DNA of 64,000 nucleotides from NCBI GenBank assembly GCA_951406725.2, contig OX597821.1, positions 56,110,001-56,174,000 on the forward strand. The letters run 5' to 3'. The stretch comes from Octopus vulgaris (lineage: Eukaryota). The notes beneath the pieces were generated by a model, which saw only the letters and a program-made list of their open reading frames with translations, made no database searches and had not been told where the DNA came from. The position numbers and the translations under genes were made by a program. Below, piece by piece: positions 1,690-39,402 of this stretch; the stretch's first letter is position 1; every line of letters begins with the position of its first letter.

Positions 1690-2800
1690 CAGTTTTGCAT
1701 TTAGAAATCTTATAAAGTATTCTTCTCTTGCCTTTCATAGTTGATCATTTTCATCGTTTATTTTGTAAAATGGGAATGTTTTAAATTTTCCATTTGCACA
1801 GATATCCAGGTGTTCCCTGCCTGGGACATTCCTAAGAGATGAATACCTAATATGTTGTTTATGCATATCTACACGACTGGTCAGTTTACTCCCTGTCTCC
1901 CCAATGTAGCTTTCATTGCATTGTGAGCATATGATGCAGTAGATGAGGTGTTTTGTTTTGAAATTCGTGTTTACACTTTTAATTCCTTCTCAATCTTTAC
2001 TCTTTTGGTTGCCCCTTGCTCAATTAATTCACATCTCCCACAACGAGGGTCTCCACAGTTGGTTACTTGCATCGTTTCTTTTTCAGATGTGAACCTCGCC
2101 TTTGTAAGAAGTCTCTTGAGGCCAGTTGGTTGTCGTCGACTCTGGAAAATTTGTGATTTTTTAACTATCCGTTAGAGATTTGGTGATTGATGTAGAATTG
2201 GGAGGTATCGTTTTGCTGAGAATAATATGCTGTGGTTTCTAGGATTGTAGGTGGCTACAAGCGGAATATTTGTATTTGCATTTTTGTTTTCACACCTAGC
2301 CTGAGTGGTTCGGGATTTCCTTTGCGTTTGTTATAGCATGTTGAAATAATTTGTTGGAGTATTTTTGTCTCTGAAAGAATATATTAAGTTTTGCAAGTCG
2401 CGTCTCTCGTCTCACGGTATCTGTGACTGTTGAGCTGACGCCACTTGCCATATGAAATGGCATGTTCCTTTTTGTATGGAAAAGATGGCAAGATCTAAAA
2501 ATATAAACATTGGCGTGTGTCTGTGTTCTTGTAGTAGAGGTCAGTTGTGACTGTCTTATTTTCTTTAATTATCAGGATGTCCAGAAAGGGGAGTTCTTTC
2601 CATTTCTTTCCATAGTGAAATGGATTGCGACGTGAATGCTATCTATTAATTTTTTTAAATGTGTACGTTCCTCCTTACTTAGGTTCCAAAATATGAAGCA
2701 GTCATCTAAGGAAGTTTTTTCTATTTTCCTATCAGATAGGTTTGAAAGTGTTGGTCAAAGTAGTTCTGGATAGGGTGTACATTTTTTCTACTAGGCATCC
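1690..2800 (-). mobile_element. Penelope-like element remnant: RT C-terminus/thumb plus GIY-YIG endonuclease (pseudogenised)
   Basis: Manual minus-strand translation gives [65 protein letters not shown] and REEYFIRFL, with frameshifts and stops. Cut off by (CA)n/(TA)n at about 2805. Confidence 0.8.
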
Positions 2801-4099: not shown

Positions 4100-5230
4100 A
4101 GAGTGATAACTATTGTTAGATCCGATAGAATCTAACAATATTATCCCTTGTAACATTAAGGTATACATTGAGAGAACTAGAAAGAAAGTATGAAAATTCT
4201 TTAAAACTTATAATGTGGGCATTACGTTAGAATAGAATCTTAAGGTTGCGTATATGTTAGGGCTAACTTTGGAACACATATCAAAACTATTTTACTGAGC
4301 TCACAACTTATGTAAGCTGTTTTGCAAATCACCCCGCCGATGTAATTAACTCATTAGTAAATGACGTCTGCAATAGAATATCACACCTCTCTGCTAATGA
4401 GAATATCTTTGGCGTTTATGCTCGTCACTTTAACGAAGTTTTAATAAAAGCGGAATATAAACAATCCATTAGTTATTTCTCCGCGACTAGTGAAATGAGA
4501 GATTATATAATAGAGGGTAGTATTTCTTTGTGATATTATTCTTTTATATAATTACACACAGAAATACAATTATGTGCGATTGTAGAAGTGTAGGAAGTAC
4601 CAAGCTTCTGAATAGAAAAAATGAGAACGAAAATATTAAATATCATAACTATTATAAAGCAACTTCACATAATATCAACTCGAACAAAATAGATTGTACT
4701 GATGAAAGTAGCATTAATAATAATAATCATAATCATAATAATAATACGTACATAAGGAAGTTATACATAAAAGGGAAAACAAAGGTTAGTAATTGCATAA
4801 ATATTAATTCTGACACTAATAGTTCTATGATTGATATTCATAACAATGAGAGAGCTGCTCTGAATATCAGTAATAATAGCGATTGTAGTGATAAATTACC
4901 AACACTAATGTTCCTTGTACGAACGGTAGTAATAGCAGTGATAGTCAAAACAGAACTAAAAACACTATATATATAGTCGTACTGATAATTTACATAATAC
5001 CATTAAAGCGCGCAAATTGATATATCACAAATCCACAAGCCAGCTGAACTTATGAAATGATGATGTAATCTATTTTAACTCGCCCACAACATTATTATGA
5101 AACTATTCTAAAAAGTTATTGCCCCTTAGAGAAAAAATTCCCCCATCGAATAAATATTTCTATAGCTTTAATAAACGTAGGATAAGGATTTCATTTCTGG
5201 ATCATCCTCGCAATTTCGGCTGATTAATCT
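4100..5230 (+). mobile_element. Penelope-like element remnant (RT thumb plus Asn-rich linker)
   Basis: Translation IERTRKKV*KFFK..ITLE, YVSCFANHPADVINSLV..NRISHLSANENIF..FNEVLIKAEY, then DVIYFNSP, resembling PLE SNHP/RIS/IWFNPP motifs. Confidence 0.65.
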
Positions 5231-6280: not shown

Positions 6281-8124
6281 TCATTTGCACCTCTTGCCGT
6301 GAGGTAGGTTCATCTGGGACTCTTGACAGGAAGATGTCCAGCTTTGATTTAAAACCGCTACATCTACTTTGTGCAAGTTCCTCAGACTCTTTGGGAGAAT
6401 ATTAAAAAGCTGTGGGCCCTTGAAACCCAGGCTGTTGCAGAAGCTGGTCCTGAAGCGTGATGGCATTGCTGGGATCTTTGGCACTATGCAGTGTCGTCCC
6501 GTTCTAGCATTGGTGTAGCTTACAATGCCAAAATTTGGCACAATTCCTTCCAGGATCTTCCAGACATATATTACTGCATACTTCTCCCGTCTTCTCTCCA
6601 GGGAGTAGAGTCTTAGCTGTTTCAACCTTTCCCAGTAGCTGAGCTGTTGCAAAGAGACGATCTTCTTTGTGAATCTTCTCTGGATTGCTTCAAGGTCCGC
6701 TGTTAATTTTACACTGGTGGGTGACCATAGCTGTGAGCAGTAATCCAGGCGACTGAGGACGAATGTCCGCCAGAGGACCATCATGGTTTCCTTATCTCTG
6801 GTTCTGAATGTTCTTAGGATCCACCCAGCCAGTCGTCTGCACTTTGTCGCCATCCTGGTAATGTGCACTTGGAAAGAGGTATCATCACTCGTGTCGATAC
6901 CCAGGTCCCTCACAGACTTAGGCTCTGGGATTGAAATTCCCTGTGGACCGGTGTATCCTGCAAGTTTAATATTCAGTTTTGGATGCTGGTAGCGCAGGGC
7001 CTGGAATTTTTCAGCATTAAACTGCATATTATTATCCTCAGCCCATCTGTAGATTGAGTCCAACTCCTGCTGCAGGTGTGCAACATCGCTGGGGTTCTGT
7101 ATTTTCTGCGAGACTTTCGTATCGTCTGCATAGCTGGCCAGAGTGGCTATCCGGGCATTTGAGGGCATATCTGAGAGGGCCACTATAAAAAGCAGTGGTC
7201 CCAAGACAGTGCCCTGTGGAACACCGCTCACTATTTGTGTGTTCATAGAGGTGGCTCCATTAACCACTACTGCCTGACTCCTATCTTTCAGGAAGTCATG
7301 CAACCACACTCCAAGTTTTCCAGCTATGCCGAGGTCACGTAGTTTGTGGCATATCATACCATGATCCACCTTGTCAAAAGCTTTTGCAAAATCAAGGTAG
7401 ATTACGTCCACATTTGATTTGTTGAGTAACTGCCTCAACACCCAGTCATAATGCTGTAAGAGCTGGGTCAGGCAGTCCTACCTGGTCGAAAACCATGCTG
7501 GGTATTACTCAGCAAGTTATTTTCCTCAAGGAATGCGATTAGTTTCTTTCTGACTATCCTTTCCATGACTTTGCTGATGTGTGAAGTCAGAGAGATAGGC
7601 CTATAGTTTTTGGCATCTGCTCTACTTCCCCCTTTATGTATTGGGCATATTATTCCCTCCTTCTGCTTGCTTGGCAGTTTGCCATTCGCAAGAAAGCTCT
7701 GGAAGAGAATCTTGAGGGGTTTTGCCAGGGCATGCTTACACGCTTTGAGGAGGATGGCTGGGAAACCGTCTGGACCAGCAGCTGAGTTTGTGTCCACTTC
7801 ATCTATGGCTAGTAGGACATCTTTTTCGCTAATGTCAATACATTCTATTGTAACCGCCTCGCTGGTTATAGGTGAGGCGGCAAAGAAGTACACTGGTTCG
7901 TTCACTTGTCTGTGTTCCAACGGGGTGGTAAAGACACTTTTGAACTGGCCATTCAGCATCTCACTGATCATAGTTGGACTGTCTGTGAGGGAGCCATCCT
8001 TTTGGAGGAGGGGTCCTATCTTGTAGTGCACTGAGACTGTTTCTTTCGCGTAATGAAAGAAGGCCTTTGGGTTTGATTTAATGTTTTTTATAACCCAGGC
8101 TTCTTTGTCTGCTTTCTCCTTCAC
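6281..8124 (-). pseudogene. LINE ORF2 reverse transcriptase segments (7468-8124 and 6281-7441)
   Basis: RT motifs split by a frameshift near 7465; C-terminal LYSLERRR and GPQLFNILP motifs typical of CR1. Confidence 0.9.
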
Positions 8125-14394: not shown

Positions 14395-15853
14395 TCACTT
14401 TGATCACCTTGAGCGACCAGTCCATCGGGCGTCCATTGTACATCACTGATCACAGCACACTGTCCACTTCTCTCTAGATCACGCCTTCCTCGTCCAATCA
14501 ACCTCCTAAAATCGTAACTCCACCGTCGTGGAGGCCTTCCGAGTGGTCGTTTCCGCTTGCGCGGTTTCACCGATTATCGGTGAGCCAGGTGATGTGTCCA
14601 ACCCATCTAAACTTGCTGCGTGTATATTCTACGATGACATCCCTCACGCCGGACGTCTGTCTGATGACCTCGCTACTGATGTGCTCTCTCAACGAGATTC
14701 CAAGCATTGACCTCTCTATGGCTCTTTGAGTCATTACCAATCTCTGCTCTTCTCTATTTGTAGTGGCCCATGTTTCACTACCATATATCATTGCAGGTAG
14801 AACTGTACTCTTGATGAGGTTGGCGTGGGTGGTCCTGTCTAACCTTCCCTTGAGCACATCCCTTACACCATTAAACGCCTTACATCTGGCCCTTTCTCTC
14901 CGCGATATCTTCTTTTCGATGTCTCGGCACATATTCACTTCCTGTCCCAGGTCGACATATTCCTTTACCTCCTCTACTCTATCACTGCCAACCACCATTC
15001 GACCTATCGGTACGTTGTCGGACCGCATGAACTTCGTATTCTTGCGGTTCATGTTGGGACCTACTGCAGAGATTTTGATGTCGAGCTCCGTCAGCATGGT
15101 CTGAAGCTGATCTGTGGTTTCAGCGATGATTACGATGACATCAGTGAAACGTGGGTGGGTGAGTAGCTCGCCATTGATGTTGACACCGCCTTGCCAGTCG
15201 ATGACTCTAATGATCTGCTCGAGACATGCGGTGAAAAGTTTTGGAGAGATCACTTCTCCTTGCTTCACTCCCTTCTCGACCGGTACTCGTACAGGTGATG
15301 ACAGCAGAGCTATGTCGGTGGTGCATCCGGAATTTGCCTCCCCGAGCAGTTGCACATATTGCGCCTCGACTCCTAGCTTCTGCAGCGAGTTCAGCACTGC
15401 GTTGGTTTCGACGCTGTCGAAGGCCTTCTCATAGCCTACAAGCGCAACGCAAACAAGCAGCTTGTACTCATTCGCTCGCTCAAGCAGATGTGTTAGAGTA
15501 AATATATGGTCCATCGTGCTGTAGTTGTTCCGGAAGCCGGTTTGCTCCCTCGGCCTGATTTTAACAACTCCGATGTTATACCGTCTTTCCCTGGCGCCTT
15601 CCTGTTTTTCATCAAGCCGATGGCTCTTTCGACCTCACTGACAAGAATAGGTGGCACATTTTCGTCCCGCTGGAGTGGTGGTAACGGCTGGACATTCCTG
15701 GTAGAATTGAAGAGCTTGGTGTAGAAGTCTTCGCAAACTTTTTCCATCTCGCTCTTATCATTGACCGGTATTCCATCTGTATTCTTCAGGGCCGTCCCCT
15801 CCGATCTATATAGTGCCATGTCCCTCTTGCATTTCTTGAGGCTCTTCTTCTCC
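14395..15853 (-). mobile_element. RTE-clade LINE, 5' truncated, (TA)n-flanked
   Basis: [72 protein letters not shown]. Confidence 0.92.
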
Positions 15854-37521: not shown

Positions 37522-37589
37522 GTCTGTCTGTCTGTCTGTCTGTATGTCTGTCTGTCTGTCTGTCTGTGTGTGTGTGTGTGTCGTCGACT

Positions 37590-38130
37590 CGACCCTCGAA
37601 TCCGAGGAGTTATTTCTACCCCTGGACGAATATTGGACCATTCATGCCGGTGATGAATATGGCTAACGAGGCCAATCAGCGCGCAGAATACGCGATTGCA
37701 TTGACCACGTATGAATATCAGAGTCGGTCTTCGTTGCTGCAGTCTATACTTTCCGTTGCCGTTGCCTCTCCTCCTCTTTTTTATATTCTTTGTCGGTAGT
37801 TGGTTACGGTCGTCTGAAAAGCTGGTCTGCTTCAGAATTTACTTTAGTAGATCTTTATAGCATCAAAGTGGAGCTCCTCTTTGTCTTCTACCGATTGTCA
37901 GTTCGCTGACGAGGTTTCATTGTTCATCCTTGTAACATGGTCAGCCCATCGAAAGTGATGTTTGAATAGCTCTGGCTATTCGTTCTTTCTTTCGCAGAGT
38001 TATTGAAGACATAGTTCAACCACTTGATGTTCAAGAGAGAGCGGACTTTCAGTTGATGAAAGCGTATGACATGTTTGACGTCTCGACTATACATAGTTCC
38101 AGTTTCACAACCATATAACAGCTTGTTAAT
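37590..38130 (-). mobile_element. RTE LINE 3' fragment
   Basis: LLYGCETGTMYSRDVKHVIRFHQLKVRSLLNIKW..FRWADHVTRM. Confidence 0.75.
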
Positions 38131-38323
38131 TTTGCCTTCAAAATTTTCCGGTTTTCTAGCGGCCATCCTGTATATACATACACACACACGCACACATATT
38201 ATGTATGTATGATATATATATATATATGTGTGTGTATATGTATATATATATTTCTGTGTGAGTTAGAGCTTGAGAAACCAAGTAAGGGATAGTACCTATC
38301 CCATATACTGCCATATACTGCCG

Positions 38324-38359
<36 letters not shown>

Positions 38360-38557
38360 TATATATATATACATATATATATGGACATACATATATATAT
38401 ATACATATGCAAAAATTCACCCTGGCTAGCTGGGTGCATCCGATTTTCTTCCACTTATCATGCCTACTGCAGTATTATGATCAACACTACTTTTCTATTG
38501 AACTCTTGAACAGCATTCTCATCACTGCTCAGTTATATATATATATATAATCAATAT

Positions 38558-39178
38558 AAAACTATGCATACTCCAAAGATGATTAGGGTAAATGTTTTTA
38601 ATTTTCCTTTGATTTCTGAATTACTACTATTTAGCGGTTTGAGTTTAGCTGCTCGTTTTAGTGAGTTGAATGGCCTATTAAGGCCATTCCTTAATATTAT
38701 TGTTGAATGTACATTATATAGTCTGTTTTCTTTCTCACTAGACCGCTGGTGGCGAAAAAATTTCTATTGAATTTTTTGCTACCCTTACATTGATTAATTA
38801 ATGATTTTTGGCTAATTCTGAAATTAAGTCAGCAGTTTATATTTGCTGCTGATAAGTTGGCGCGATGACGGTAGATTTTGAAAATTTAGAGTATATATTC
38901 CCAAGGCATCGATGCTGTTGCCTCGTGGAATATTTATTCCTCCTGGCTTCTTTGCCGATGAGACGGACCAGTGGTAAATTGACTTGATTAAATTAAATTT
39001 AATTTAATTAGGCTGGTTTACCAAAAAGTACGTCGAAACTATGCATAGTCCAAAGATGATTAGGGTAAATGTTTTTAACTTTCCTTTGATTTCTGAATTA
39101 CTACTATTTAGCGGTTTGAGTTTAGCTGCTCGTTTTAGTGAGTTGAATGGCCTATTAAGGCCATTCCTTAATATTATT
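38558..39178 (+). mobile_element. Retrozyme-like non-autonomous element: about 1.3 copies of a 477-nt monomer with a hammerhead, TA-flanked
   Basis: About 143-bp terminal direct repeat (38558-38701 and 39035-39178) that begins inside the HHR; no credible ORF; many internal hairpins. Confidence 0.75.
38949..39056 (+). ncRNA. Type-I hammerhead ribozyme (U4C core variant, extended stem II, palindromic stem III); predicted cleavage after C39050
   Basis: tctttg-CCGATGA-GACG[..ggtaaattgacttgattaaattaa/ttaatttaattaggctggtttacc..]CGTC-GAAA-CTATGCATAG-TC-caaaga. Confidence 0.85.
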
Positions 39179-39402
39179 ATATAAATGTATATGACACTGG
39201 TTTACAGTTATTCAAGCTTATCATTAACTTATCAATGGCACTAGAACCTCACATCATGTGAAGGTCATGGCTGTTTGGCTGTGTTCCATTCCTGTTTGAA
39301 GTCACTTTCGACTTATTATGAGCACAAGCAAATAGTCTATATCTTAATGCTGCACTAACTCGTCTCTTCATTATTAAGCTGAGGAATTCTATTTTATCGT
39401 TT

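Follow-up and report, generated by a model that had tools for sequence, protein, structure and literature searches.

The window, a 64,000-nt stretch of Octopus vulgaris DNA (contig OX597821.1, positions 56,110,001 to 56,174,000, assembly GCA_951406725.2), contains one copy, 1.3 units long and truncated at its 5' end, of a non-coding hammerhead repeat family that is dispersed through the genome. The locus is very probably a non-LTR retrozyme copy whose insertion into a TA microsatellite was carried out by the reverse transcriptase (RT) and GIY-YIG endonuclease of an autonomous Penelope-like element (PLE). The family itself is a real non-LTR retrozyme with unusually direct evidence of PLE mobilisation: its TA-bound ends show the same pattern as those of the PLEs of this genome, and it was therefore likely copied by PLE enzymes. 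In the accessible parts of the published work, the retrozyme-PLE link rests on co-occurrence and on likeness to pseudo-LTRs (pLTRs). Here, a hammerhead unit that encodes no protein bears the PLE integration signature itself, and young autonomous PLEs in the same genome insert in the same way. A preliminary description of the locus had proposed a retrozyme-type class tied to Penelope-like RTs, and the PLE integration marks, the lack of coding sequence and the covarying hammerhead bear this out. The value of the finding lies in the family rather than in the single window locus.

The window locus is a truncated copy without a second complete hammerhead

The locus is delimited by two copies of a 143-nt direct repeat spaced 477 nt apart, in agreement with the repeat length and period proposed previously. 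Its features are as follows.

38534..38549, no strand: clean (TA)8 tract, target microsatellite at the left junction
38548..38559, minus strand: probable inverted arm of 12 nt, matching the long 3' end of the family in reverse complement
38559..38701, plus strand: first repeat copy, an upstream partial unit with only AAA, stem III and the 3' strand of stem I; GUC changed to CUC (38571)
38574..39050, plus strand: one full unit from cut site to cut site, 477 nt, 34% GC, longest ATG ORF 68 codons, strong fold
38668..38689, plus strand (second copy 39145-39166): conserved hairpin GAAUGGCC/GGCCAUUC, just 5' of the short 3' end
38721..38798, plus strand: 78 nt separating the two 3' ends of the family, short and long (a PLE-type tail in other copies)
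38949..39056, plus strand: type I hammerhead fold with a U4C core, a 6-bp stem I, a 4-bp stem II with a long capping hairpin and a 12-nt palindromic stem III
38949-38954/39051-39056, plus strand: hammerhead stem I
38955-38961, plus strand: hammerhead core CCGAUGA
38962-38965/39031-39034, plus strand: hammerhead stem II with long capping hairpin
39035-39038, plus strand: hammerhead GAAA
39038-39049, plus strand: hammerhead palindrome ACUAUGCAUAGU, predicted cut after C39050
39036..39178, plus strand: second repeat copy, in which the insertion terminates about 19 nt short of the usual short end
39133..39174, plus strand: 42-nt stretch weakly like the subterminal stretch of autonomous PLE family N1 (28/42 identical)
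39175..39192, no strand: degenerate TA-rich right junction

The two repeat copies differ at two sites (38571 C versus 39048 G; 38602 T versus 39079 C). Two consecutive complete hammerheads are absent from the locus, the upstream motif having neither the 5' strand of stem I, nor the core, nor stem II. Because this motif lacks its 5' half and carries a CUC triplet, the locus cannot release a monomer and is an ordinary dead copy, as the preliminary description had suspected for the locus alone. It is an inactive offspring of a family that still qualifies as a non-LTR retrozyme.

The insertion has a short-type end at its right, at an AT-rich place where several other family copies also terminate. 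At its left, next to (TA)8, 12 nt match the long end in inverted orientation; they are probably an inverted arm, which would fit the one-short-one-long rule described below, with a match so short and AT-rich that it may have arisen by chance. Of the TA tracts reported on both sides, the left one is clean and the right one is degenerate. The 477-nt monomer length stands for this copy and does not extend to the family, the closest relatives being 9 nt longer (486-487 nt). The linear fold of 38574-39065, in which the three hairpins named previously are present, was far more stable than those of shuffled sequences (z -6.15, 0/100 shuffles equally stable), and the circular fold of the unit gave a z of -7.1 against 25 shuffles. 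In the left flank, 37580-38170 is a stretch that resembles a decayed 3' end of a non-LTR RT on the minus strand.

The unit belongs to a dispersed family with contrasting subfamilies

Subfamilies were labelled A (that of the window), B, C, D, E and F, and positions after the cut were counted from the predicted cleavage site. A search of the 2.8-Gb genome with the unit returned at least 61 matches at 82-100%, the best 40 of 2,589 candidates being scored. Exact patterns matched 55 times for the 5' half of the A hammerhead, 266 times for the subterminal hairpin, and 379 and 1,545 times for the hammerhead 3' halves of A/B/C/E and of D, respectively; all reversed controls gave 0. The copies are dispersed over many contigs, and the tandem and scattered relatives that the preliminary description had anticipated were found with full monomer lengths or periods of about 469-495 nt. 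The opposite case which it had considered, a single-copy sequence with no hammerhead conservation, falls away, the unit being multi-copy with a covarying hammerhead. At least five subfamilies, 60-98% alike, were recognised, all without coding sequence; in four monomers the longest ATG ORF had 23-68 codons and the GC content was 0.34-0.37.

Subfamily D is a young sister of the window's subfamily, with a canonical CUGANGA core and a GUA cut triplet. It is about 70% alike to the window unit and 96-99% alike within itself. By hand count, 48 of the first 100 D matches listed lay in 11 runs of at least three units. One array (C10:20374165-20380521; L173-L197) holds 14 hammerhead units and cut sites with a period of 489, and some of its variants occur on alternate units, which suggests a higher-order repeat or unequal crossing-over. 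In contrast, A/B/C/E yielded three direct pairs and 0/100 matches listed in runs of at least three; their longest arm had about 2.1 units, and the window's group otherwise stayed under about two units. Dimers are present in subfamily B. No complete two-hammerhead dimer of subfamily A was found among its 55 exact matches, and two direct pairs of A break off inside the second hammerhead. Subfamily C has a canonical core yet short inserts, which weakens any simple core-to-length rule.

Across 48 D units from 15 arrays, units differed by 2.5 substitutions within arrays versus 6.4 between them, a homogeneity that both rolling-circle copying and unequal crossing-over would produce and that does not discriminate between the two. 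Since 18 of 40 array-level variants were polymorphic inside arrays, some of them on alternate units, local amplification after insertion contributes to the arrays.

A profile search also revealed an older, divergent sister family, F (L041:5060-5680, L033:4100-4336 and L193:2961-3400), with its own palindromic stem III (ACCAAUUGGU), a GUC site and both end types. The 5' half of its hammerhead seems to be a decayed or variant form.

Covariation in all three helices of the hammerhead

The hammerhead elements lie where the preliminary description had placed them; the nature of the core was missed. CCGAUGA is a non-canonical U4C variant of CUGANGA and is shared throughout the window's subfamily. 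At gathering score, Rfam matched nothing in the window; with E values of up to 10 allowed, it still reported no hammerhead family for the window locus or for one D copy, so the motif rests on covariation and not on a library match.

We parsed 166 hammerheads in 97 loci, 20 overlapping or duplicate loci being excluded and D arrays being over-weighted; 128 had an intact core and helices, and the U4C core was present in 72. The main versions of each helix are all paired: UCUUUG/CAAAGA, UCUUUA/UAAAGA, UCCUUG/CAAGGA and UUCUUA/UAAGAA in stem I; GACG/CGUC, GACA/UGUC, GGUG/CACC, AGUG/CACU and AUCU/AGAU in stem II; ACUAUGCAUAGU, ACAAUGCAUUGU, ACGAUGCAUCGU and ACGGUGCAUCGU in stem III. In 15 hand-picked A/E/C/B copies, 96.4% of cells were paired as compared to 34-45% in slid controls, and 8 of 22 pairs changed on both sides, including all four of stem II; the covariation score was reached by 0/500 shuffles. 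These counts come from few subfamilies and thus represent few inherited events, not many independent ones. Taken together, the helix comparisons indicate that the hammerhead is under selection, all three helices covarying between subfamilies around an invariant core. Compensatory changes also occur among the U4C lineages themselves (GACG/CGUC versus GGUG/CACC; CUUUG/CAAAG versus CCUUG/CAAGG versus CUUUA/UAAAG), indicating that the fold stayed under selection in the presence of the variant core. In the tree, several forks of which are weak, U4C extends across A, E and part of B, and C, which has U4, is nested among the U4C groups; U4C appears to have reverted in one subfamily.

The palindrome was kept in 99 of the 100 matches listed for the A/B/C/E 3'-half pattern with two positions free. 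It runs through the loop of stem III, where D has both UGCA and UAUA (one listed locus carries a mismatch). Such a paired change in a loop would make sense if two molecules or two units pair, in line with the dimer model of PMC4209133, and the previous suggestion that the palindromic stem III acts in a dimer thereby gains support. The active fold was predicted to be a minor state, with probabilities of 0.01 for stem I and 0.07 for stem III in the circle and 0.2 for stem III locally. According to the accessible text of PMC3088659, U4C lowers activity in vitro yet suffices for a viroid; in that of bioRxiv 2026.07.22.740005, no cleavage occurred for 8 of the 9 dimers predicted in Xenopus. Self-cleavage and RNA circles of the octopus family are predictions of the fold. 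Contigs of runs X1, X2 and X10, which we guess to be RNA, and of X15 cover family sequence, with strand, level and circularity not readable from contigs; the three guessed-RNA runs gave no depth on the flanks of family sequence, and none of the joints was indicative of a circle.

Insertions carry two fixed 3' ends and target TA repeats

Arms were surveyed at loci L001-L109, excluding two duplicates, and 161 arms were scored. Their 3' ends were found at two fixed positions 78 nt apart: 70 were short (about 147 nt after the cut), 65 were long (about 225 nt after the cut) and 26 lay elsewhere or were unclassified. TA-type repeats followed in 150 of the 161 arms, and 27 of 47 single arms also had TA upstream. 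Inverted head-to-head pairs (n = 49) combined a long and a short end in 39 cases and a long and an unclassified end in 10; none had two ends of the same class. D arms have the same two end types. The 5' ends of the family are ragged. The marks of PLE insertion described in the available portion of PMC8557442 are 5' truncation, a partial tandem, an inverted 5' copy, a tail at one end and (TA)n targets. The family displays PLE-type 5' truncation, partial tandems, inverted 5' arms and the one-end tail, together with a preference for (TA)n targets without a clear target-site duplication.

The D tandem arrays, their local homogenisation and the negative Rfam result are what a satellite-like repeat spread at the DNA level, with an incidental hammerhead, would give. 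The fixed 3' ends, ragged 5' ends, TA targeting and short/long rule are however marks of target-primed reverse transcription, and the helices covary around an invariant core. The satellite reading is largely refuted and is scarcely credible. When the two arms of inverted loci were compared for origin from one template, they were closer to each other than to another locus in 11 cases, with 2 ties and 20 cases in which they were not. L1-type twin priming and simple fold-back were considered for the inverted arms and misfit the arm coordinates of L046, L070 and L072 when these were worked through by hand.

Young autonomous PLEs are a probable source of the enzymes in trans

The autonomous PLE families of this genome were labelled N1, N2 and N3. 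At least three very young Neptune-type or related families (L152-L167) exist in many identical copies, all targeting TA tracts, with open frames of 775 aa (twice) and 880-1270 codons. N2 and N3 have RVT_1 and GIY-YIG matches; N1 matches are weaker, and N1 has a C-x4-C-xx-C motif before the nuclease. An ORF for RT plus GIY-YIG is absent from the retrozyme unit and present in trans in N2 and N3 (more weakly in N1). N1 insertions also have two end types, short and long, separated by about 55 nt; the inverted loci combined the two in 4/4 cases and ran into TA. The single N3 inverted locus was also short plus long (1/1), and two N2 loci had no clear classification.

Copies of the unit might be truncated 3' ends of an ORF-bearing PLE family of which the unit is the pLTR. 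Their ends, tail and inversion are the same as in autonomous PLEs, hammerheads are usual in pLTRs as far as the accessible text of PMC4209133 goes, and the family was sampled in part, the best 40 candidates being scored per DNA search. Against this, long copies continue upstream into the previous unit and never into an ORF. With three protein queries, and flanks of only 1.5 kb at 30 of the loci, a junction between the unit and a PLE ORF was seen in 0 of 163 arms, contrary to the alternative, named in the preliminary description, that all copies are terminal repeats attached to a PLE ORF. In four of the 163 arms, a PLE ORF lay on the same strand within the 1.5 kb upstream, separated from the arm by a TA tract every time, and the existence of at least five subfamilies as divergent as these, none with coding sequence, also argues against it. 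We judge this explanation very improbable; the unit itself likely derived from an ancient pLTR. The PLE ORFs adjoining L018, L024, L027, L043, L051 and L063 were considered as partners and rejected as separate insertions into shared TA tracts.

N1 matches the 42 nt before the short end of the unit at 28 positions in register. In a 70-nt shuffle test, 1, 7, 4 and 1 of 300 shuffles reached the score for A, B, C and D, respectively; in a 150-nt test for B, 30/300 did. N2 and N3 had no similarity to the subterminal stretch, a profile of the 3' part of the unit found no clear homologue among 56 PLE loci, and blastn of the unit against the PLE loci gave chance matches only. Three young PLE families were sampled at full length. 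N1 is a candidate partner only, because its likeness was spotted by eye before testing, the 150-nt test for B was reached by 30 of 300 shuffles and the profile search missed N1.

N1 also contains an atypical hammerhead-like motif (CUGAUGCG, a 6-bp hairpin and GAAA) at L152:7305-7375; the motif lies about 130 nt upstream of the short 3' end of N1, a position equivalent to that of the hammerhead in the retrozyme unit. At L051, a single TA-rich site has received nested insertions, namely a dimer of D and, each with an inverted arm, a 3' fragment of N1 and a copy of A. A loose end in run X10 resembled a partner family but proved to be a tail insertion of 40 nt in unique DNA, for which an empty paralogue exists. 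This tail-only insertion lies in one of two paralogues (L150:1520-1562 / L151), the other being the empty site, and the X10 contig, which bears another organism code, has the filled form.

5' ends of the window's group accumulate just after the predicted upstream cut site

Among 48 arms holding an exact 16-mer, 7 stopped 0-40 nt after the upstream cut as compared to 1.2 expected. In 57 arms from 40 hairpin-selected loci of C1-C4, from which earlier-fetched loci and two others were excluded, 4 versus 0.9 expected stopped there at the second cut and 11 versus 5.7 at the first. For the second cut, both sets together gave 11 versus 2.1 expected (Poisson P ~1e-5, the zone having been chosen after looking); nine irregular arms were dropped from the 5'-end counts. 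Three arms start at offsets 0, +1 and +2, no further than 1 nt from the base immediately following the cut. In D, 1 of 24 arms started in the 0-40 nt zone (hand count on a score-biased sample). The pile-up could also mark a transcription start or AT-rich microhomology. For the window's subfamily, a linear template fits it at least as well as a circle.

Mobilisation would begin with transcription of a multi-unit locus. The hammerhead would then cut after GUC (GUA in D), probably aided by pairing of two palindromic stems III. After nicking of (TA)n by the PLE enzyme, cDNA synthesis would be primed at either of two AU-rich sites, located 147 and 225 nt beyond the cut, and would halt early or at the 5' end of the template. 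In the U4C group of the window, a linear template is likely, one that began at the upstream cut or shortly beyond it and whose internal hammerhead had stayed intact; in the canonical-core subfamily D, a circle or a long multimer is the likely template. A fuller version, in which the core sets the template, is put forward as a speculative and rather unlikely model. In this model, U4C and related lineages would be copied from linear RNA that has been cut in part, giving pLTR-like inserts of 1.3-1.5 units with the in vivo cut recorded at their 5' end; the canonical CUGANGA/GUA lineage would pass through monomer circles rolled by the PLE RT into 3-14-unit arrays; and the TA-targeting, Neptune-type N1 would be the partner, recognising the shared subterminal hairpin region.

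Two other accounts of the template remain live; neither is exclusive of the main reading, which is about the class of the element and what mobilises it, and both overlap with it. One has all subfamilies arising by rolling reverse transcription of circular monomer RNA, with the 5' pile-up due to AT-rich microhomology or RT pausing. In its favour, the copies exceed one unit in length and are circularly permuted, D units resemble others of their own array more than those of different arrays, and circles have been demonstrated for mussel, coral and axolotl retrozymes (PMC7229834, accessible part). The failure to find a complete dimer of the window's subfamily among its 55 exact matches adds to this, since a circle would be a simple source. 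In this zone, however, cDNA stops are about 2-fold in excess on the first pass and about 5-fold on the second although the sequence is the same, so that sequence alone does not explain the pile-up, and unequal crossing-over, to which the variants polymorphic inside arrays can be added, also gives within-array likeness. We regard circles throughout as a real possibility, though a minority one.

The other account places an internal promoter just past the hammerhead as the 5' boundary. U4C would be slow or idle and cleavage unneeded, the window's group being a miniature PLE made of an upstream partial unit, a body and a downstream partial unit. The spread of 5' ends over 0-40 nt, rather than at one base, is consistent with this, as are the weakness of U4C in vitro and, from the accessible text of PMC8557442, the successful spread of PLEs without canonical hammerheads and the internal promoter of Penelope. 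The compensatory changes among the U4C lineages themselves and the three arms starting at offsets 0, +1 and +2 argue against it, and we find the promoter account doubtful.

The mobilisation of the family by PLE enzymes can be studied on a small young substrate, with units of <500 nt and about 1,900 exact hammerhead-half matches, in two contrasting sister lineages, one with short inserts and a 5' barrier and the other with long arrays. Owing to these properties, the origin of PLE and retrozyme tandems from circular or linear RNA, and the role of the hammerhead, become testable. If the core does set the template, one lineage would offer a natural experiment on the making of Penelope-type partial tandems.

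Comparison with known retrozymes and PLEs

We found no published description of the family, or of PLE end structure in retrozymes, in the open-access literature; the comparisons below refer to the accessible parts of the papers cited. Metazoan non-LTR retrozymes are known from mussel, coral and axolotl (Cervera and de la Pena 2020, PMC7229834). The octopus family shares with them tandem units that are non-coding and low in GC, each with a single type I hammerhead, a strongly folded monomer, PLEs in the same genome, and no LTR, PBS or PPT seen. It differs in unit size (470-492 nt versus 150-450 bp), in a stem II capped by a long hairpin, in a stem III of 4 bp within a 12-nt palindrome, and in its U4C core or GUA triplet. 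Its hammerhead is also predicted not to fold freely in the circle, and its circles and expression are predictions. Integration marks were measured here, whereas PLEs are proposed as partners in that part of PMC7229834.

Non-LTR retrozymes have also been described as non-autonomous PLE derivatives (Li, Clavereau, Pollet, bioRxiv 10.64898/2026.07.22.740005). The conclusion of PLE dependence, a size inside the 51-972 bp range and a mixture of monomers, dimers and arrays are common to both studies. The case made in the available text of that preprint comes from vertebrates and is built on co-occurrence and on homology to pLTRs, with a transposable element matched by 24 of the 57 families in Xenopus; in the octopus, pLTR homology is nearly absent and the evidence is insertion structure. 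The window locus falls outside the preprint's class of 'active' elements, which have two complete hammerheads.

The family resembles EN+ Neptune-type PLEs (Craig et al. 2021, PMC8557442) in its 5' truncation, partial tandems, inverted 5' arm, one-end tail, (TA)n targets and hammerhead near the 3' end. Unlike these elements, it has no ORF, its whole repeat unit is <500 nt, and its tail is 78 nt as compared to 30-40 in the published elements and about 55 in the local N1. With the minimal hammerheads of PLEs (Cervera and de la Pena 2014, PMC4209133) it has in common the type I topology, the palindromic stem III and predicted dimer action; it differs by three complete helices, with a stem I of 6-8 bp and a stem III of 4 bp, and by having no extra base between A9 and stem II. 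As in the viroid U4C hammerhead cited in Perreault et al. 2011 (PMC3088659), the core change is kept in a replicating RNA lineage, but in the octopus several genomic subfamilies have it as their principal core (72/166 motifs). The plant LTR retrozyme, with a type III hammerhead in LTRs, a PBS and PPT and a 4-bp target-site duplication, is a different arrangement from the type I hammerhead, ragged 5' ends and TA targets found here.

Other PLE-related sequences were encountered beside the family. Two open frames of 648 and 350 codons (L063:813-2756, minus strand, and L024:2489-3538, plus strand) have no Pfam match; by their motifs they look like Naiad-type PLE RTs. Cephalopod Naiads are described as long inactive remnants in the accessible text of PMC8557442. 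Elsewhere in the window, 1690-2718 (minus strand), 4309-4497 (plus strand), 6761-8094 (minus strand) and 14519-14842 (minus strand) comprise a PLE ORF that is broken, a fragment resembling the L063 frame and pieces of LINE RT.
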